Part shown: piece after piece, positions 43-18,311 of the stretch
Layout of the letters: every line of letters starts with the position of its first letter
Position numbering within the stretch: position 1 is the first letter of the stretch
Source of the DNA: a bacterium
Lineage (GTDB): Bacteria; Patescibacteriota; Dojkabacteria; JAKAPS01
NCBI GenBank assembly: GCA_021806925.1
Contig: JAKAPS010000006.1
Coordinates: 1 to 62,789, forward strand
Direction of reading: 5' to 3'
DNA length: 62,789 nt
Translations under genes and position numbers: made by a program
Notes under the pieces: generated by a model
Told to the model about the DNA's origin: nothing
What the model saw: the letters and a program-made list of their open reading frames with translations, nothing else
The model's database searches: none

Positions 43-549
43 TCAGAATTGACTCTCGAACTTAACTCCTTTCCTCTTTTGGATAACTCTTACCTTCTTT
101 TTCCCCTTATTCCCGATAATCTCTAATGATTTATCAAATTCTTGTATATCAGGCCGTATTCCATTTTCTAGAAAACACAGAAGATCAGAATAATCTCTTC
201 CTTTTGGAATAGATCTATTCTCTTTACCAAATTTCTTATCTCTTGTAAATATAGCATTTACCTTATCAGTAAATAAAAGAGGTAACGACTATGCTTTTAA
301 AATATAGCTATGCCTAGGTATAAGGTCTGGTTGTATATTTGAAAATGATGTTTTTTGTAAATCAAGTTTTACATATAAAATTTCACTTTCATTTGTACGA
401 CTTAATCCCAAAATATGTAGAATTGGAAATTTCAATGTAATTGTTTGATTATGATTTGAAACAGATGCATAAATATCATATGCAAGTTCATTTTTGAAAT
501 AACTGAGGGTTCCATATTTCCAATTACCTCTAAGTATTTCACAATACAC
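43..549 (-). pseudogene. AbiEii-family nucleotidyltransferase (type IV TA toxin) remnant with in-frame TAG at 289-291
   Basis: ORF 289..549 ends HSYILKA*; the same frame continues SLPLLFTDKVNAIFTR...KGRDYSDLLCFL, matching the AbiEii K..AI..R / KGRDxYDL pattern, to a TGA at 43-45. No intact N-terminus recognised; 5' boundary uncertain. Confidence 0.7.
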
Positions 550-7354: not shown

Positions 7355-8197
7355 ATGGAACACCTGGAAAAAATAAAAGATATATTAATACATATTGCAA
7401 TAGAGGATGGAGAAATAATTGAAGATAGATTTAACAGTAGAGGAACTTTTTTAGATGTTAGAATAAAAGATAACGATATGCACAATATTGTTACTGATGC
7501 AGATGAAAATTCACAGAAATTCCTTATAGAAAATATAACTGAAAAAGTTTTAGGTATAGGAATAAAAAAGGAACAAATAGGATTTATATGTGAAGAAAAT
7601 GGTGTATCAAATATTGGTGAATATACTTTTGTAATTGATCCTATTGATGGAACTACTGCATTCTATGCAGGATTTCCTGCATTTGCAATATCTATAGCCC
7701 TATTTTTAAACAATGAACTTGTACTTGGGTTGATATATAACCCGATGACAAAACAGATGTATTATGCAATCAAAAATAAAGGGGCATATTGCTATACGAA
7801 AAAAGGTGAAAATATAAAGATAAATTCTAAAGATTTGCCTCTTAATAAAATGATCTTTATGGGTAGTTTGAGTAAGGTGTTTAATATAGAGTTAATACAA
7901 ATAGAGATGTATAAAGAGCTACACAAACATTGTTTAGGATTTGCTGGAACCCTTTCATTTGTTGACTCCGTTATAAAGTTACTAGATGATACCAACTTTG
8001 TTGGGATAACAATCCTTGGAGGTGGTATGCTTTGGGACATCTCCGCTTGTGAACTTATTGTTACAGAATTAGGTGGAAGTGTATGTGATTATGAAGGCAA
8101 AAAAAACATATTGGATTTAAAAAACCCAGATAAAAAATACCCTTCAATAGTTTATACAAAAAGCACAATTGATGATATTCTTAACATTATAAAATAG
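7355..8197 (+). CDS. Inositol monophosphatase family protein (SuhB-like)
   Basis: TDADENSQ, ICEE, VIDPIDGT, LWDISA motifs. Confidence 0.92.
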   Translation: MEHLEKIKDILIHIAIEDGEIIEDRFNSRGTFLDVRIKDNDMHNIVTDADENSQKFLIENITEKVLGIGIKKEQIGFICEENGVSNIGEYTFVIDPIDGTTAFYAGFPAFAISIALFLNNELVLGLIYNPMTKQMYYAIKNKGAYCYTKKGENIKINSKDLPLNKMIFMGSLSKVFNIELIQIEMYKELHKHCLGFAGTLSFVDSVIKLLDDTNFVGITILGGGMLWDISACELIVTELGGSVCDYEGKKNILDLKNPDKKYPSIVYTKSTIDDILNIIK

Positions 8198-8256
8198 ATA
8201 CTTGTAAAACAAAAAAAAAGACGGCTGTTTTCTAGTGGAAACGGTTTCACGTTTTA

Positions 8257-8285
8257 TTTACATACCATAATATAAATGCTAACCT
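8257..8285 (+). promoter_or_regulatory. Putative sigma70 promoter TTTACA-N17-TAACCT (extended -10) for fibre-like paralog 1
   Basis: Correct spacing; the same hexamers recur exactly 2200 bp downstream before paralog 2. Confidence 0.55.
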
Positions 8286-8311
8286 AGTAGTAATAGGCGA
8301 TCAGTTTTGGT

Positions 8312-10336
8312 ATGGGGAAAAATTTAAAAAATGTTCTTAGAAAAATATCAGGCGTAATCATTACGTCTATTCTCATACTGAATCCCGTGTATCTTAATCT
8401 TGTTACTACTGTTTCTGCTAACCCTCTTCCATATATTGATTACCAGGGAAGGTTGTCTGATTCAAATGGAAATCTTCTAACTGGAAATTATTACATTACT
8501 TTCTGTATTTATTCCGTCTCATCCCCTGCTACAAACTGTACTCCTCCTGCTTCTCCTTCTGGCTCTGGTGGAACTATCTCCACTCTCGGCAGTGCTGTAT
8601 GGGGTGAATACAGATACTTCAGTTCTACTAATTCTCCTTCTAATGAAGTTTTAAATGGTGTATTTAATACTCACCTTGGTAGCCAGTCTGCTCTCCCTAC
8701 TAACCTTTTTAGTGCAAATTCAGATCTATACCTCGGTCTCAATGTATATAACGGTTCATCTTGGGATGGTCAAATGACTCCACTTGAAGAGATAGTATCC
8801 AGTGGATATTCTATAGCTAGCGGTGGACTCACCAGCGGGACTAGTACATACTCTGCAAGTCAAACTCCTGCTGCTAATCAAATCCCTATTCTCGACTCCA
8901 GTGGTAATCTTACTCTCCCTGCTAATCTCAATGTAACTGCTGGCAACACTACTTTCGGCGGTGGAACAAATGTTACTTCTACTGGAAACTTAACCATTGG
9001 TGGAACTAATAGCCTTTACTTTGATACTACAAATTTTAGCATCTACTCGAACGGAACAAACCTATATATCGGACATGGAATGTCATCTACAAGCTATCTC
9101 TACTTGGATGGAAATATTGATTACATAGAAAATGGCGACTTAACTGTGAATGGATTAAGTAACTATATAAACGGGAATGTTTTAACAACAGGAGGATACC
9201 TTAATATGAAGAAAATTGCTAATCCTACAGCAGCACCGACACTTGGTGAAGTATCAACTGTAGGGCTACCAGCTGCTACATATTACGTTGAGTATACATG
9301 GGTAAATGGTGCTGGTGAAACAGGGTCATCCCCTGAAGCATCGTATACAACTGGTATAGGTTACGGATTGACAGTTAGTACTACATTTAGCGGAACTGTA
9401 ACAAGTGCAAATATCTATGTTAGCACAACAAGCGGAAGTGAAACTCTGCAAACTAATCCAATAACAGTCAGCGGTGGAACATGGACTGAACCAAACACTG
9501 GAATTACGAATACTGGAGCTGCTGCCCCTGTAACAAGTACAGCAGGAGGTTATATTACACTATATAATACAACAGGTAATGGAAGTTCAAAAATATTTTC
9601 AACCAGGAATGGATTTAATTTTGTAACTACAACTAACTATTGGTATTTTACTGGTATTGGAACAAATGGAGATACATTTAATATGGATGCAATAAGCGGA
9701 AATATAAACTTAAATGCTGGATCCTACACTTACAATATAAATTCAGGAGGCGTTGTTATAAACTCACCTAGCGGATATGCTGGTGATTTACTTGATGTTA
9801 AAAATAACGGAACTACAGAAATTGCTGTTGCTAATGGAGGTAATGTAACCATAACAAATAATCTTACTGTGAATGGGGTAACAACACTTAGCACTACCAA
9901 TACTGGGAATCTAGCAACAACTGGAAGTTTCCATTTCAGCGGACAAGGAAGTAATACTTGTATAGTTACAAGTAATTATGTATATACATATGCTTCCACA
10001 AATTCCACAGTAAATGTAATGACATGTGCAATAACAATGAGTACAACAAATCCATTACTTGTTACATTCAGAGCGAACTATATTGAGTCAAGCGTAACAT
10101 ACGCTGATGATACATTCTGGTTCTGTGTAGATGGTACAAGCTCAAATTGTACAGAAGAAACTATGTATTCAAATGGATCATCAACATACAATACTGCAAC
10201 TCCTACTATTTCCGAAACATATACAAATGTAGCCGCCGGAGCACATACAATATATCTTGAAATGCTTGGAGGAAACGCAACTAGTGGAACAAGCACTGTG
10301 TATGCTAACCTTCAAATGCAAGTAATGGAACTCTAA
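8312..10336 (+). CDS. Secreted fibre/adhesin-like beta-rich protein, paralog 1
   Basis: Signal-peptide-like N-terminus, YQGRLSD..G..LTG.Y.ITF.IY module, T/G/N/S-rich beta repeats, TYYVEYTWVNGAGET Fn3-like segment. Confidence 0.65.
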   Translation: MGKNLKNVLRKISGVIITSILILNPVYLNLVTTVSANPLPYIDYQGRLSDSNGNLLTGNYYITFCIYSVSSPATNCTPPASPSGSGGTISTLGSAVWGEYRYFSSTNSPSNEVLNGVFNTHLGSQSALPTNLFSANSDLYLGLNVYNGSSWDGQMTPLEEIVSSGYSIASGGLTSGTSTYSASQTPAANQIPILDSSGNLTLPANLNVTAGNTTFGGGTNVTSTGNLTIGGTNSLYFDTTNFSIYSNGTNLYIGHGMSSTSYLYLDGNIDYIENGDLTVNGLSNYINGNVLTTGGYLNMKKIANPTAAPTLGEVSTVGLPAATYYVEYTWVNGAGETGSSPEASYTTGIGYGLTVSTTFSGTVTSANIYVSTTSGSETLQTNPITVSGGTWTEPNTGITNTGAAAPVTSTAGGYITLYNTTGNGSSKIFSTRNGFNFVTTTNYWYFTGIGTNGDTFNMDAISGNINLNAGSYTYNINSGGVVINSPSGYAGDLLDVKNNGTTEIAVANGGNVTITNNLTVNGVTTLSTTNTGNLATTGSFHFSGQGSNTCIVTSNYVYTYASTNSTVNVMTCAITMSTTNPLLVTFRANYIESSVTYADDTFWFCVDGTSSNCTEETMYSNGSSTYNTATPTISETYTNVAAGAHTIYLEMLGGNATSGTSTVYANLQMQVMEL

Positions 10337-10358
10337 TATATATATATATATATATATA
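10337..10358. repeat. (TA)11 dinucleotide microsatellite
   Basis: Perfect TA run starting immediately after the stop codon of 8312..10336. Confidence 0.95.
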
Positions 10359-10456
10359 ACTCAATAAATACGCAATTTATTAAAAGCAAGCAACAAAAAA
10401 GCAACCATTGGTAATGTATTAGGAGTGGTAAAAAAATAATAAGACCCCACATTTTA

Positions 10457-10485
10457 TTTACATACCATAACATAAATGCTAACCT
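10457..10485 (+). promoter_or_regulatory. Putative sigma70 promoter TTTACA-N17-TAACCT for fibre-like paralog 2
   Basis: Duplicate of 8257-8285 with one spacer change. Confidence 0.55.
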
Positions 10486-10511
10486 TGTATTAGTAGACAA
10501 TCGGTTTTGGT

Positions 10512-12572
10512 ATGGGAAGAAATTTAAGAAATATTATTAGAAAAATATCAGGCGTAATTATTACGTCTATTCTAATACTTAACCCCTTGTACCTCAATCT
10601 TGCTGGTAATGTTTCAGCTAACCCTCTTCCATATATTGATTACCAGGGAAGATTATCTGATTCAAATGGAAATCTTCTAACTGGAAACTACTACATTACT
10701 TTCTGTATTTATTCTGTATCCTCCCCTGCTACAAACTGTACTCCTCCTGCCTCTCCTTCTGGCTCTGGTGGAACAATATCTACTCTCGGTAGTGCTGTAT
10801 GGGGTGAATACAGATACTTCAGTTCTACTAATTCTCCTTCTAATGAAGTTTTAAATGGTGTGTTTAATACTCACCTTGGTAGTCAATCTGCTCTTCCCAC
10901 TAACCTCTTTAGTGCAAATTCAGATCTATACCTTGGACTCAATGTATACAATGGTTCTTCATGGGACGGTCAAATGACTCCTCTTGAAGAGATAGTATCC
11001 AGTGGATACTCCATTGCTAGTGGTGGACTTACCAGCGGGACTAGTACATACTCTGCCAGTCAAACTCCTGCTGCTAATCAAATCCCTATTCTTGACTCCA
11101 GCGGAAATCTTACTCTACCTGCTAATCTCAATGTCACTGCTGGGAATACTACATTCGGCGGTGGAAATGTTACTATCACAGGAAGCAATAGTTTATACTT
11201 TTACAATAATTCCTTTGGAATTATGTCGAATGGAACTAATCTATATATTGCAAAATATATACCAACTAATGGAAGCATTTACTTGGATAATAGTACAGAT
11301 TACTTCCAGAATGGAGATCTGACACTAAATGGATTGAATGACTATATAAACGGAGATATATCAGATAGTGGTGGATATATCACAATGCAAAAGGTTATAA
11401 ATCCAACAGCAGCACCTACTCTTGGAGAAGTAGCTGTTAGTGGACTACCTGCTACAACATATTATGTAAAATATACTTGGGTAAATGCTGCTGGTGAAAC
11501 AGGAGCATCTCCTGAAGCATCATATACAACTGGTGCAGGGTATGGATTAACAGCAACTGTAAGCTTTAGCGGAACAATAACAAGTGCAAATATTTATGTT
11601 AGCACAACAAGCGGAAGTGAAACTCTGCAAACTAATCCAATAACCGTCAGCGGTGGAACATGGACTGAACCAAGTACAAACATTACAACCAATGGAGCTT
11701 CAGCACCTACACTTAGCAGTGCAGGAGGATACATTACACTTGATAACACTGCTGGAAATGGAACTTCTAAGATATACACTAACAGATATGGGGTCAATTT
11801 TGAAACTACAAGTAATTATTGGTATTTTGTAGGAAGTGGAACAAATGGAGATACTTTCAATATTGATGCTGCCAGTAACAATGTAAGCTTAAATACAAAT
11901 TCATATACATTCAATATAAATTCAGGAGGTGTTGTTATAAACTCACCTAGCGGATATTCTGGTGATTTACTTGATGTTAAAAATAACGGAACTACAGAAA
12001 TTGCTGTTGCTAATGGAGGTAATGTAACAGTAACAAATAATCTTACTGTAGATGGAGGAATTACTAGTAGCGGATCAGCCCTAATAGGTGGAAATTTAAC
12101 TGCAAATGGAGGTACAACAACTCTCGGTACAACTAATACAGGAAACTTAGCGACAACTGGAAGCTTTAGTTTTAGCGGAAGAGGAAGTAATTATTGTACT
12201 GATACAAGTAGCTTCACATACACATTTAGTTCTACTAACCCCGCAGTAACAGTTATGACATGTTCTTTTACTATGAGTACTACAAATCCTATCCTTGTAT
12301 TATTCAATTCATATTATGCTGTAGCAAGTAATCAATATTCTGATGATATTTTTTACTTTACAGTTGATGGAACTGGTTCAAGTCCTTCTACCAAGGCTTT
12401 ATTTGCAAACTCATCATCTGCTAATCAAGTATTGACGCCAAGCCTATCATTTATTTACACTGGAGTTGGTAGTGGTGCACATGCAGTATATTTAGAAATG
12501 CAGGGATCTGATGTAACAAGCGGAACATCAACCATCTACCCTAACATAACTTTACAAGTAATTGAGTTATAG
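10512..12572 (+). CDS. Secreted fibre/adhesin-like beta-rich protein, paralog 2
   Basis: Residues 34-218 identical to paralog 1; downstream conserved and divergent blocks alternate. Confidence 0.65.
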   Translation: MGRNLRNIIRKISGVIITSILILNPLYLNLAGNVSANPLPYIDYQGRLSDSNGNLLTGNYYITFCIYSVSSPATNCTPPASPSGSGGTISTLGSAVWGEYRYFSSTNSPSNEVLNGVFNTHLGSQSALPTNLFSANSDLYLGLNVYNGSSWDGQMTPLEEIVSSGYSIASGGLTSGTSTYSASQTPAANQIPILDSSGNLTLPANLNVTAGNTTFGGGNVTITGSNSLYFYNNSFGIMSNGTNLYIAKYIPTNGSIYLDNSTDYFQNGDLTLNGLNDYINGDISDSGGYITMQKVINPTAAPTLGEVAVSGLPATTYYVKYTWVNAAGETGASPEASYTTGAGYGLTATVSFSGTITSANIYVSTTSGSETLQTNPITVSGGTWTEPSTNITTNGASAPTLSSAGGYITLDNTAGNGTSKIYTNRYGVNFETTSNYWYFVGSGTNGDTFNIDAASNNVSLNTNSYTFNINSGGVVINSPSGYSGDLLDVKNNGTTEIAVANGGNVTVTNNLTVDGGITSSGSALIGGNLTANGGTTTLGTTNTGNLATTGSFSFSGRGSNYCTDTSSFTYTFSSTNPAVTVMTCSFTMSTTNPILVLFNSYYAVASNQYSDDIFYFTVDGTGSSPSTKALFANSSSANQVLTPSLSFIYTGVGSGAHAVYLEMQGSDVTSGTSTIYPNITLQVIEL

Positions 12573-12582
12573 TTAAATAGCC

Positions 12583-13656
12583 TTATTGTGCCCCGTACTT
12601 CCTTATAACCTTTGATTTATCAAATGTTACTGGCGTTTGTTTAGGTTGTATGTATGTGTCTATAGCTATATTGCAACAATATGGTGTAGTTCCAGTACAC
12701 CAGTTCGTATAATAACCGCCACTTACAACTGAATATTTTTTTCTACCAAATTCATTTGATAGTCTGTTATCTTGATATGCTATTTGACTACAAACTGTCC
12801 ATGACTTTGAACAAAAGCTATCAGAAGAAACATTATTGCAGGTTGGAACATTTCCATCGAGTGTAGATGTATTCCAACTTAAAATTACTTGCCAAAATTT
12901 ATTTGATATTTCACCCCAATCCTTAGAGTAGTGAGGACTCCAACTTGAAGCAATCCAATAATTAAAATTACCAGGTGCAAGTGCAGGAGCTAATAAATAC
13001 GTACTTAGAGTAGGATCTTTTCCAAGAGTGGCAAGTAAATAATCATCATAGCTTCCACCACTAAATATCTGCTTTGTCATCAATTGAGATATAGTAACAT
13101 GTGGAAAATTCTGAGGTAAACCTTCCATTGCAAATACTTCATTCCCAACTTCACTAACTAAGGTAGGGTCATTAGGATTACCAATGGTTTCCCTAAATGC
13201 CTCAGGTAAATTCAATATATTTGGATAAAATTGTTCACCATACCCTATCTGCCAAGATAATGGATAAAAGCATGTTTCATTATCAGGGAAAAAATACCCA
13301 TCACAATTTTGTATCCTTATATCACCATTTATTCCCTCGCTATAACTCCAAGCAACAACAAGACGAGGATCAACATGAGTGTGATGGACTCTGTTATATA
13401 TATCAATACTGTTATTTACATATGGAACCATTGCTTTTAATGAAGCAATAGTGCTGCTTGAAGCAGAGTTACTTAAATAGCTTGGATCATATACGAATCT
13501 ATATGTATACATGTACTGCTCTATTTGGCTATATGTTATTGTATATTTTCCATCAGAATTAGCAATAGCAATTCTTGGGGTTATATAAACTAAGAATATG
13601 AACAAATTAATAACCAATATAAATACAAATACTATAAGGTATCGTAATTTAAACAT
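12583..13656 (-). CDS. Membrane-anchored exported protein, possible lysozyme-like (SLT) fold, Cys-rich C-terminus
   Basis: N-terminal TM/signal; VDPRLVVAWSYSEG resembles the SLT 'DP.L..A....ES' helix; several C-terminal Cys. Confidence 0.4.
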   Translation of the reverse strand: MFKLRYLIVFVFILVINLFIFLVYITPRIAIANSDGKYTITYSQIEQYMYTYRFVYDPSYLSNSASSSTIASLKAMVPYVNNSIDIYNRVHHTHVDPRLVVAWSYSEGINGDIRIQNCDGYFFPDNETCFYPLSWQIGYGEQFYPNILNLPEAFRETIGNPNDPTLVSEVGNEVFAMEGLPQNFPHVTISQLMTKQIFSGGSYDDYLLATLGKDPTLSTYLLAPALAPGNFNYWIASSWSPHYSKDWGEISNKFWQVILSWNTSTLDGNVPTCNNVSSDSFCSKSWTVCSQIAYQDNRLSNEFGRKKYSVVSGGYYTNWCTGTTPYCCNIAIDTYIQPKQTPVTFDKSKVIRKYGAQ

Positions 13657-15367: not shown

Positions 15368-17803
15368 TTAAAAGTTAAAACCATCAAATGGATTCTTCTT
15401 TGTACTTGGTGCTTCCTTACCACCTTCTAAAATTGACTTCCTTCTATCTTCCATTTCCTTCTCAACATCTGCAATACTCCTTCCGTACCTTACACTTGAA
15501 AGCTTCTTTATTGAATCCCCAAGTGATATGTTCGGTTCTGGTATTTTCCATGTTGTATCAAGTGAGAATGCAGGTATTGTTTCCCCTTTAGCTATCATCT
15601 TTACATAACAATTCCTATTTTCTAAATTCAACAAATCCTGTTGTTTAAAGGTAGGAGAAAATTCCTTTTCAAGTATTTCAGCATCAGCTGCACCCACCTT
15701 AAAGCTAACTAATGAACCAACATTACCAAACACTGCCTGCCTAATCTGATCAGTCATTTGTGACATATATTGGTTTGCGACTGTTAGATTTAACCTGTAT
15801 TTTCTTGCCTCAGACATGATTTTCATAAAATCATCAGTTGCAAAGTTCTGGAATTCATCAACATAAAGGTAACAATCTTTTCTTTCTTCAATAGGCAATT
15901 TTGCTCTTGTATATGCAGCACTTAAAATTTTAGGGATTAATATTAACCCGAGGAATTGAGAATCCTGCTCACCTAACTTTCCTTTACTTAAATTCATTAT
16001 TAGAATCTTCCTATTGTTCATAATGTCGGAGAAATTGAAAGCAGATTTACTCTGACCTAATATATTTCTCATTGTTTTGTTTGTTACAAATCTATCAAAC
16101 TTTGATGTGAAGTAACCAAGAGTTTCAGATTTATGATAATCAGAAGTCTTAGCTATCTGTTCCGTCCAATATGATCTAACTACATCATCTTTAAGATACT
16201 TAAGCATTTCGTTCAAATATGCTTGATCCAATAAAATCAACTTGAGGACTTCAATTAATGTACTTCCAGGTCGAGCCATTGCAGTTAAAAGAGCATTTCT
16301 TACAACCCTTTCCAGCTGAGGACCAGTAATACCTGTTTTATTTGGATCAAATAATTTTTCTAGTAACGCATAAAAAGCAGATGCAATCTGGTGTTGCTCT
16401 AATTCAGTTTCATTATCAAGAATGTTAAACCCAATAGGTCTTTCTGTATCTCCAGGATCAAAATATATAACATCTTCGGCTCTCTCAGGAGGTATTCTAT
16501 AAATTATATTTTCAGCACTGTCTCCATGTGGGTCAATAAAAATAACGCCCTCTCCATTAGAAATATCTTGAAGAATCATTTTTTCAAGAAGTGTTGATTT
16601 TCCGACACCTGTTCTTCCAACAATATATACATGCCTTGTTCTATCCTCTTTAAGCAAGGCTACTCTTTTTATTATTCCTCTATACACACCATCTCCAATG
16701 TATAGACCTTCAGTTGCAACACCTTCAGGAACTGGTGCCCTCTTTGAGGATAGCCAGTGAAGATTTGGTACATTAACATTTTTATTCGGTAAATGAAATA
16801 TTGAAGCTAACTCTGAAGTATTTAAGACTGATAAATGAGAATTTGGAAGGAATCTAAACAATGGAAGATGCCTGTGCTTGAAAGCAATTATGAAATCCTG
16901 CTTCTCATACCATCTCAATTTTCTTTTCGTAAATTTATTAGCTCCTGGATCCTCAAATTGCTTAAAACTCTCAACAAGAGATTTTAAAATCTTCTTAGCA
17001 TTATCTGCACTTGGTGATGTAGCAACTAACCTAATACAGAAGTTATATCCAAGTTTTGACATTTTTTTATTTATTGCTTCAACCTGTTTTGTATCAGTCT
17101 GTGGTTTAGGATTCTTTTCATCACCAGTTTTTTGCATATCCTTAACCTTAGCCTTACCTTTCTTGACCCATTTTCCATCTGATGGAGAGATTATAAGTTG
17201 CATTGCTGCACCCTCATGTGGAAGTAATCCACTAAGAGATGTAGTAATTGCACTAATTGTGTCTACCTTCATATCTTCATATTCCCTTATTGGGAGGTAG
17301 TCTTTTTTTGCAAGTTTTAGTTCTGCAAATTCAATATTAGTACTTTCCTCAGAAAATATCTTGTATTCCTGATTCTGTATAAGTATTTCAGCCTCAGGAT
17401 ATGCTGCATTTATTTGTTTATTCACTAAATTAACTAATCCATTTGGCATTGAAACATAAAACCTTATTGTCTCTGGAAGCCCTACAATTTCAAAACTAAT
17501 ATAGTCATACTCACCAAAAAATTTGTTTTTAAAACTATGATTTCCAATACCAGCAAGGTTAGCAAATAACTGTTCAGCTGCTTTTATTTCTATTTCATTG
17601 TCTTTAGGAATACTAACCAATTCAAGAACTCTTTTAGCTCTCTTTTTTCTTCTAGTTGTATCATGAACAAGGTAAACGATGTATATAGACAAAAGAATGG
17701 CAACTACAACAATTGCAATAAATAGGACACCATCTATAGCCACTCCGAGCCAGTTAATTATAGATTGTTGTGGTGCATATGCAACTACTTCAGTTGGAAC
17801 CAT
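15368..17803 (-). CDS. VirD4/TraG-like type IV secretion coupling ATPase (TrwB/DUF87 type)
   Basis: N-terminal TM, GRTGVGKS Walker A, FIDPHGD, LYVDEFQNF Walker B, SEARKYRL, ANQY, VFGNVGSLVSFKVG. Confidence 0.88.
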   Translation of the reverse strand: MVPTEVVAYAPQQSIINWLGVAIDGVLFIAIVVVAILLSIYIVYLVHDTTRRKKRAKRVLELVSIPKDNEIEIKAAEQLFANLAGIGNHSFKNKFFGEYDYISFEIVGLPETIRFYVSMPNGLVNLVNKQINAAYPEAEILIQNQEYKIFSEESTNIEFAELKLAKKDYLPIREYEDMKVDTISAITTSLSGLLPHEGAAMQLIISPSDGKWVKKGKAKVKDMQKTGDEKNPKPQTDTKQVEAINKKMSKLGYNFCIRLVATSPSADNAKKILKSLVESFKQFEDPGANKFTKRKLRWYEKQDFIIAFKHRHLPLFRFLPNSHLSVLNTSELASIFHLPNKNVNVPNLHWLSSKRAPVPEGVATEGLYIGDGVYRGIIKRVALLKEDRTRHVYIVGRTGVGKSTLLEKMILQDISNGEGVIFIDPHGDSAENIIYRIPPERAEDVIYFDPGDTERPIGFNILDNETELEQHQIASAFYALLEKLFDPNKTGITGPQLERVVRNALLTAMARPGSTLIEVLKLILLDQAYLNEMLKYLKDDVVRSYWTEQIAKTSDYHKSETLGYFTSKFDRFVTNKTMRNILGQSKSAFNFSDIMNNRKILIMNLSKGKLGEQDSQFLGLILIPKILSAAYTRAKLPIEERKDCYLYVDEFQNFATDDFMKIMSEARKYRLNLTVANQYMSQMTDQIRQAVFGNVGSLVSFKVGAADAEILEKEFSPTFKQQDLLNLENRNCYVKMIAKGETIPAFSLDTTWKIPEPNISLGDSIKKLSSVRYGRSIADVEKEMEDRRKSILEGGKEAPSTKKNPFDGFNF

Positions 17804-17876
17804 TTCAACAAGACATTATACCCCAAAACAGGAAAACAACCAATGTTTATTAAAAAGAATATATGTTTAATAAAGA

Positions 17877-18311
17877 CTAAAATGGCATTTTACCTACAAA
17901 ATTACGTGCATATTTAATATTCTCTTTGTCTATAATACTCTTATGCTTATCATATTTCTTCTTTCCCCTTCCAGCACCAACCTCAATTTTTATTAAATTA
18001 TGTGACAACAATATACTAAGAGGAATAACAACATTCCCTTTTTGCTTTAAATGATTTGCAATTTCCCTTATTTGAGACTTCTTCAACAACAATTTTATAT
18101 TTCTGCTCTGAGCATTATCAGTTATTGCATTTATTAAATAAACTTCGCCATCTAATACTTTCACATATGAATTCTCTATTTTAACTCTCCCCTCTCTAAA
18201 AGCTTTTACCTCAATTCCTTCAAGAATCAAACCACAAAGATATTCTTTAAATATGAAAAAATTAAAATTAGCATATTTATTTCTCTTTATTAATTTTGCG
18301 TTTTGCTTCAT
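17877..18311 (-). CDS. smpB: SsrA-binding protein
   Basis: NKYA.FNF, GLILEGIEVKAFREG, KLLLKKSQI, GRGKKKYDK. Confidence 0.93.
   Translation of the reverse strand: MKQNAKLIKRNKYANFNFFIFKEYLCGLILEGIEVKAFREGRVKIENSYVKVLDGEVYLINAITDNAQSRNIKLLLKKSQIREIANHLKQKGNVVIPLSILLSHNLIKIEVGAGRGKKKYDKHKSIIDKENIKYARNFVGKMPF

Follow-up and report, generated by a model that had tools for sequence, protein, structure and literature searches.

The DNA analysed here is a stretch of 62,789 nucleotides (the window), contig JAKAPS010000006.1 of a Dojkabacteria genome from the Patescibacteriota (GenBank assembly GCA_021806925.1), on which we studied a pair of paralogous genes termed A and B. Gene A (P0001; 8312-10336) encodes a predicted secreted fibre protein of 674 amino acids, and gene B (P0002; 10512-12572) encodes a paralog of 686 amino acids with 73% overall identity to A. 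Both genes are intact open reading frames (ORFs) on the plus strand and lie head to tail with their starts exactly 2200 bp apart, the offset given in an earlier note made from the sequence, and an origin by tandem duplication is supported. The predicted order of domains in both proteins is a leader, an immunoglobulin (Ig)-like beta-sandwich, a shaft, an Ig-like domain, a second shaft and a tip of the tumour necrosis factor (TNF)/C1q-like type. Neither protein could be assigned to a family in Pfam (E up to 1), NCBIfam or PHROG. The sequence of gene A is present on three contigs of public assemblies, and an ENA assembly contains the 4.5 kb of the pair without a single difference on a contig of 206,887 bp. 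The source genome comprises 928 kb and is 92.7% complete; its relatives and best matches are Patescibacteria.

Substitution pattern of the N-terminal module

The main finding concerns the N-terminal module (N-module) at the base of both proteins. Residues 34-217, which span the Ig-like beta-sandwich (~40-160) and the proximal part of the shaft, are encoded on the plus strand at 8411-8962 in A and at 10611-11162 in B, and the two proteins are identical over these 184 codons. On the DNA level the modules differ at 41 nucleotides, comprising 25 transitions and 16 transversions, all of them in third positions and all synonymous. The earlier note had described identity over residues 34-218 with roughly 30 silent differences; the identity and the silent nature of the changes are real, but residue 218 already lies in a 7-residue indel and the count is 41. 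The proportion of differing silent sites (pS) in the module is 0.30, the synonymous distance (dS) 0.38 and the replacement distance (dN) 0, with an upper 95% bound of 0.019 for their ratio (omega). With 0 replacement against 41 silent changes, the strong purifying selection proposed for the module holds.

The adjoining leader shows a different pattern. In A it covers codons 1-33 (8312-8410, plus strand) with a basic N-terminus, a modelled hydrophobic helix at residues 2-28 and the residues V-S-A before the mature end. Between A and B it carries 8 amino-acid changes at a pS of 0.29 (omega 0.36), and its 9 replacement and 7 silent differences contrast with the 0 and 41 of the base module (Fisher P = 1.3e-6). 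A leader that changes freely and is presumably cleaved thus lies next to a frozen mature domain within one tract, whose silent sites are of the same age.

N-module paralog pairs from other Patescibacteria genomes served as comparators. Their omega values were 0.10-0.19 with 14-81 amino-acid differences and a dS of 0.29 to >2. This set includes the tandem pair of G207 (dS 0.42, omega 0.10), P0004/P0007 (0.67 and 0.14), L030/L031 (0.29 and 0.15), L036/L037 (0.83 and 0.14), L032/L033 (1.38 and 0.12) and L028/L042 (0.97 and 0.11), whereas A/B combine a dS of 0.38 with an omega of 0 (upper bound 0.019). More diverged pairs gave values of 0.11-0.29, with 0.29 reached by one pair only. At an omega of 0.12 about 19 replacements are expected in the base of A/B and the probability of zero is ~6e-9. 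These comparisons support extreme purifying selection on the N-module of A/B, well beyond that seen in similar paralog pairs of relatives. Closely similar pairs (dS <0.1) have 0-2 amino-acid differences; the modules of L023 and L024 are identical in DNA and others are nearly so (8 silent and 0 replacement differences in one case, 8 silent and 1 replacement in another). Since paralogous N-modules are identical or almost identical in DNA elsewhere, homogenisation of the base is common in the family. The ratio of dN to dS against the closest relatives from other species was unusable, because the silent sites are saturated there (pS 0.74-0.78).

Mosaic divergence of the distal regions

Silent divergence between A and B is not uniform. 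Across blocks pS ranges from 0.07 to 0.80 (chi-square 87, 7 degrees of freedom, P 4e-16), with 0.30 in the base module, saturated values of 0.70-0.80 in the first shaft and the tip, 0.13 in A codons 361-390 and 0.07 in A codons 481-521. The two near-identical distal blocks that the earlier note had noticed exist, at A codons ~359-391 and 471-521. The first low-divergence island (9416-9494, plus strand, paired with 11595-11673) consists of identical runs of 50 and 28 nt with one mismatch between them. The second lies in shaft 2 (9722-9874, plus strand, paired with 11901-12053); its core of 70 nt is identical between 9780-9849 and 11959-12028, and 32 third positions in a row are identical (permutation P ~2e-4). 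Purifying selection on a protein leaves silent differences in place, whereas the silent sites of the islands are near-identical as well; the islands are therefore best explained as gene-conversion tracts of different ages rather than by the selection on the protein that had been proposed for them.

The C-terminal tips have diverged as described before, with 51% identity over the last 130 residues (proportion of differing replacement sites, pN, 0.31; pS 0.70). The idea of diversifying segments was not borne out, as pN was below pS in every sliding window of 30 codons over A/B. Positive or diversifying selection is unsupported for the pair, and silent saturation in the distal parts would mask it anyway. 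A comparison with phage-like cassettes had also been drawn. A search of the 928-kb genome with every block of A and B (tblastn and blastn) found no third copy, no match to a reverse transcriptase (RVT_1) was found in the 92.7%-complete genome, and the context is not that of a phage. Variation by cassettes or retroelements (shufflon, silent cassettes or diversity-generating retroelement) was ruled out, with only A and B found and no RVT_1.

Predicted architecture

In the AlphaFold monomer model of A, an N-terminal helix (residues 2-28) is followed by a confident beta-sandwich at 40-160 and a confident Ig-like domain at 300-410 (both with a predicted local distance difference test, pLDDT, of >90) and by a beta-sandwich of moderate confidence at 548-674 (pLDDT 60-77). 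The stretches 165-295 and 432-547 were modelled with low confidence. The base sandwich resembles generic Ig-like folds in the PDB with no close solved relative (best Foldseek E 0.06, best VIA Z 6.8). Searched with the whole model, Foldseek returned weak and scattered matches, the top one being gpJ, the central tail fibre of phage lambda, with a template modelling (TM) score of 0.10.

The variable part of shaft 1 (codons 218-299; 8963-9208, plus strand) differs between A and B by a 7-residue indel, with a pS of 0.76 and a pN of 0.28. As a monomer this shaft has a pLDDT of <50, which rises to 82-84 in the predicted trimer, where the shaft forms the interface. For residues 35-330 a homotrimer was predicted with a score of 0.84 compared with 0.00 for the best control and a partner pLDDT of 82-84. 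The runs agreed in at least 91% of the contacts; the interface extends over residues 160-304, and the tightest contacts, at 180-208, lie within the invariant block. The same score mark was attained by 20 of 30 proteins solved as one-chain pairs and by 1 of 23 single-chain proteins. The prediction supports, without proving, that A and B form a homotrimeric intertwined fibre, and together with the TNF/C1q-like fold predicted for the tip it agrees with the fibre- or trimer-like nature that had been suspected.

The middle domain (codons 300-415; 9209-9556, plus strand) is Ig- or fibronectin type III (FN3)-like and has its counterpart in B at 11388-11735. It matched a capsid chain of SPO1 (9vel_C) with a Z of 8.8, and in tblastn it hit proteins of the tail and baseplate of large Bacillus phages (E 5e-9). 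The domain carries the motif T-Y-Y-V-x-Y-T-W, and the representative library contains hundreds of related domains, many of them in short proteins of 200-300 amino acids.

The tip of A (codons 545-674; 9944-10333, plus strand) was modelled as a jelly-roll beta-sandwich, and that of B (codons 557-686; 12180-12569, plus strand) follows an insertion of 19 residues that A lacks. VIA-align placed the tip of A next to the TNF-like lectin PLTL (Z 9.3, root-mean-square deviation 3.2, 121 residues aligned), the C-terminal domain of Chlamydia Pgp3 (8.8), EDA-A1 (8.2), BclA (1wck; 7.7), 9h38 (7.3) and Bd2734, the tip of a mosaic adhesive trimer (MAT) fibre of Bdellovibrio (7.2). When the middle domain and the tip were searched by sequence against the library of solved structures, no match appeared at E up to 1. 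A word-seeded search that used the tip by itself recovered the query and nothing else; as it also missed B, it is uninformative.

Distribution of the N-terminal module

Protein, DNA and profile searches of the source genome found no carriers of the N-module besides A and B. Among 11 genomes of the order to which the organism belongs, 8 contain the module, usually as a single copy at the head of very long ORFs (3450 and 3712 amino acids). In an even sample of 401 Patescibacteria genomes it was found in 132, with 1-5 copies heading ORFs of ~400 to >7000 amino acids. The sample includes one unpublished genome (G364), which carries none of the specific conclusions. The module always stands behind a leader and is N-terminal in all aligned relatives. 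The 3450- and 3712-residue forms (L010 and L011 in G004 and G003) are exceeded in the phylum sample, where the ORFs reach 7471 amino acids, and the A/B pair with 674-686 residues belongs to the shortest complete forms of the family.

Profile searches showed that the N-module precedes Peptidase_S74, YadA_head, Kelch, CBM_4_9 and beta-helix regions, and some of its carriers are named 'tail fiber domain-containing protein'. In the ESM Atlas, a search by shape located this fold N-terminally in proteins of several phyla that bear S74, Collar, FGE-sulfatase or fibrinogen domains. Cluster look-ups of ten distant matches to the N-module named only Doudnabacteria and Saccharibacteria. Several Patescibacteria proteins of 1300-1800 amino acids with the module (P0222, P0254, P0265 and similar ones) match the phage-integrase SAM-like domains PF13495 and PF02899. 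Some of these also carry Peptidase_S74, and two are named XerD or site-specific integrase in their source; either these annotations are wrong or the proteins are unusual fusions. The base module has its two closest relatives at opposite ends of the 193-kb ENA contig_21009 (L021, 8001-9437; L022, 8001-8957). In one of the two (P0004) the GC content changes from 43% to 63% after about codon 330, where the translation is seemingly out of frame and adjoins high-GC genes, and this switch probably marks a chimeric join made in assembly at the repeated module.

Genomic setting

The earlier note had stated that the duplication includes the promoter. Upstream of A, 64 bp at 8248-8311 (plus strand) align with their counterpart 10448-10511 upstream of B with 8 mismatches, counted from the alignment, and the similarity stops upstream of this flank. 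The shared flank is a candidate promoter and 5' untranslated region, but a consensus promoter scan gave no plus-strand site in it. By eye, the conserved elements TTTACA, TATAAA and TG-n-TAACCT can be recognised within the flank, and we infer that it may act as a promoter. An (AT)11 microsatellite (10336-10358), read from the sequence, directly follows the stop codon of A; ~90 bp separate it from the conserved flank of B further downstream, and the repeat length could influence how strongly B is expressed or reached by read-through. An Rfam scan of 8000-12800 revealed nothing meaningful.

The upstream neighbours encode ThrRS, a C26 peptidase-like protein, Nramp and an inositol monophosphatase, and the downstream neighbours a protein of 357 amino acids, an AAA_14/DUF4143 ATPase, a VirD4-like ATPase and SmpB. 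The 357-residue protein (12583-13656, minus strand) has a hydrophobic N-terminal segment and is convergent on B across a 10-nt gap. It showed no family in Pfam, NCBIfam or PHROG; the genome contains no paralog of it, and none of the related fibre genes has a homologue of it alongside. SmpB and VirD4-like genes also occur within a few kb of a fibre array in G207, a genome of another family of the same class (15368-18311 of the window, minus strand, compared with 2141-5458 of L043). This array contains three tandem fibre genes of 1550, 1157 and 3834 amino acids, and its VirD4-like protein is 44% identical to that of the window. The proximity may reflect retained synteny or a link of the fibres to type IV secretion genes; it was seen in this one relative and not in the others checked. 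Between 8000 and 12000 of the window the GC content is 0.36-0.37 over the fibre genes compared with ~0.30 in the flanks, for which the Gly/Ser/Thr/Ala-rich composition of the proteins may account.

Discussion

We propose, with moderate confidence, that A and B are tandem paralogs encoding secreted homotrimeric surface fibres with a shared base anchored to the envelope and tips for different ligands. The two genes would form independently transcribed units, each with its own conserved 5' flank. After removal of the leader, the invariant first ~180 residues, comprising the Ig-like sandwich and the start of the shaft, would fix the fibre to a common element of the envelope, while the shaft and the Ig-like spacer would project a trimeric TNF/C1q-like tip. 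As the tips differ (51% identity), each would have a ligand of its own, most plausibly among the surface glycans of the host organism of the episymbiont, and fibres of this kind may set the host range, as had been suggested before. The base would be kept by purifying selection, short gene-conversion tracts would have re-homogenised two distal stretches, and the remainder would have diverged under ordinary constraint.

A bolder extension of this proposal, which we consider possible but doubtful, is that the N-module fibres, present in about one third of the sampled Patescibacteria genomes, are the counterpart of MAT fibres in this phylum and a main determinant of the host to which an episymbiont can attach. 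The base of A and B would be locked by one invariant anchoring socket or by co-assembly, and the pair would then be a natural two-specificity attachment device. Work on host recognition by ultra-small episymbiotic bacteria has so far centred on type IV pili, and a MAT-like fibre architecture, described from a predatory proteobacterium, would be widespread in Patescibacteria. Two proteins of ~680 amino acids with a common base and different tips are a compact and tractable case suited to tests of anchoring and ligand specificity. Moreover, the frozen base beside a changing leader is an unusually clean natural experiment, which points to a very tight partner of the base module.

Several points weigh against our proposal. 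Secretion, trimerisation, surface location and binding are matters of prediction or inference; the N-terminus was taken as a leader peptide by eye, and the trimer score is the model's own confidence and may reflect likeness to solved fibres. The fold assignment of the tip is tentative, since its pLDDT is 60-77, the Z scores of 7-9 are middling and sandwiches of the CBM35 type reach 7-8 as well. The likeness to MAT fibres is one of architecture. The organism has no known host. Furthermore, anchoring alone does not explain an omega near 0 in this pair compared with ~0.1-0.2 in relatives. The freezing of the base is only partly explained, and we rank a tight shared socket before co-assembly of A and B and the latter before selection on silent sites.

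The lack of a known host also bears on a different role of the fibres, namely a general surface coat or the binding of polysaccharide, mineral or biofilm matrix, with tips that reflect environmental rather than host ligands. TNF-like and CBM35-like sandwiches both match the tip, and members of the family carry CBM_4_9, Kelch and beta-helix domains. However, the MAT fibres as the closest characterised family work in cell-cell recognition, cultivated Patescibacteria are obligate episymbionts, and surface-associated predicted adhesins are among the growth-essential functions in a Saccharibacteria species (PMC11665869). We therefore judge this role unlikely as a replacement for host attachment. 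A phage origin is less credible by far. If A and B encoded the tail fibres of a prophage or of a particle derived from a phage, one might expect the similarity of the Ig-like middle domain to tail and baseplate proteins of Bacillus phages (E 5e-9) and the lambda central tail fibre at the head of the whole-model Foldseek search, albeit with a poor TM of 0.10. Nevertheless, both proteins have cleavable-looking leaders and housekeeping neighbours, no PHROG family was matched and a search of 50,697 phage records gave no match to the N-module. We rejected the phage element on these grounds and regard it as very improbable.

The remaining alternatives concern the identical base. In the family gene conversion does act, as seen from the one DNA-identical pair, the near-identical others and the two islands in A/B, so a recent duplication or conversion without any special selection could be thought of. 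The base has nevertheless accumulated 41 silent changes (pS 0.30) without a replacement since the last homogenisation, with a probability of at most 1e-7 at the usual omega of the family. This refutes such an event as a sufficient cause, and we give it hardly any weight. Mixed trimers of A and B, assembled through the identical base and proximal shaft, would make a replacement in one protein harmful to the shared interface. The invariant span covers the tightest predicted contacts (180-208), and co-expression is possible with the same conserved 5' flank on both genes. Past residue 217, however, indels of 7 and 19 residues and an identity of ~54% in the first stretch would bring a mixed shaft out of register, which makes co-assembly improbable in our view. 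About equally small is the chance that the silent differences were selected for DNA divergence, shielding the tandem pair from homologous deletion, in which case dS would be inflated and the constraint on the protein ordinary. In favour of this idea, A and B form a direct repeat with a spacing of 2.2 kb, none of the 41 differences changes an amino acid, and similar pairs in other genomes either hardly differ in DNA or contain replacements. Yet the silent changes are not spaced more evenly than by chance (longest identical run 71 nt against 51 nt expected; P = 0.94 for a run of at most 71 nt), the distal islands keep identical runs of 70 and 50 nt, and the leader and the 5' flank are equally diverged at silent positions but with replacements.

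Comparison with known systems

Among known systems, the conserved base and variable distal end, which the earlier note had pointed out, match the layout of a described adhesin family. Caulton et al. (2024; PMC10769870) reported 21 MAT fibres in Bdellovibrio bacteriovorus, which act in cell-cell recognition. Each is a meandering trimeric fibre with swappable tips, including S74, TNF-like and C-type lectin folds. The base was read as the end retained on the cell, and its partner was left unidentified by the authors. The solved MAT structures are confined to the tips. Their table of other MATs lists Oligoflexia, the PVC group, Alpha- and Deltaproteobacteria, the FCB group and OP3 and does not include Patescibacteria, and among the papers searched we found none connecting MAT fibres with this phylum. 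Similar to MAT fibres, especially those with TNF-like rather than S74 tips (Bd2439, Bd2734), A and B have a putative signal peptide followed by a conserved beta-rich N-domain of ~130 amino acids without a solved homologue, then a trimeric shaft, by prediction only in A/B, and a variable tip that in A/B may fold on its own (Z 7.2 between the tips of A and Bd2734). Both are encoded by multi-gene families, and in strain HD100 the MAT genes bd0704/0705 and bd3266/3267 are consecutive. An indirect link is that proteins with S74, FGE and Collar domains begin with the N-module, and these tip classes are listed for MATs too. In contrast, MAT proteins have ~1000 amino acids compared with 674-686 in A/B and occur in 21 copies compared with two, their envelope differs from that of the Patescibacteria cell, and the Ig-like middle domain shared with Bacillus phage tail proteins is a feature of A/B. 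By analogy A and B may be fibres of the MAT kind, although membership is unproven.

A relation in sequence exists to the S74 'tail fiber domain-containing proteins' of Patescibacteria, Elusimicrobiota, Bacteroidota and Verrucomicrobiota. They have the N-module in common with A and B (profile E 1e-48 to 1e-26; TM 0.52-0.58, normalised by the query, for its shape against S74 clusters) and likewise run from leader through module to fibre. However, they end in Peptidase_S74 (PF13884), an intramolecular chaperone, whereas A and B lack S74 and have a jelly-roll tip instead. Receptor-binding tail fibres of phages, in which the N-terminal attachment domain is conserved and the distal parts are exchangeable, share with A and B the trimeric logic, the mosaic conservation, a TNF/C1q- or lectin-like tip and the phage-like Ig domain, but A and B are cellular and leader-bearing with no tail or baseplate genes nearby. 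BclA and F-BclA, the fibres of the Bacillus exosporium and of endospore appendages, likewise are surface fibres with a trimeric TNF/C1q-like C-terminal cap; their collagen-like GXX repeats are absent from A and B, and the base modules are unrelated.

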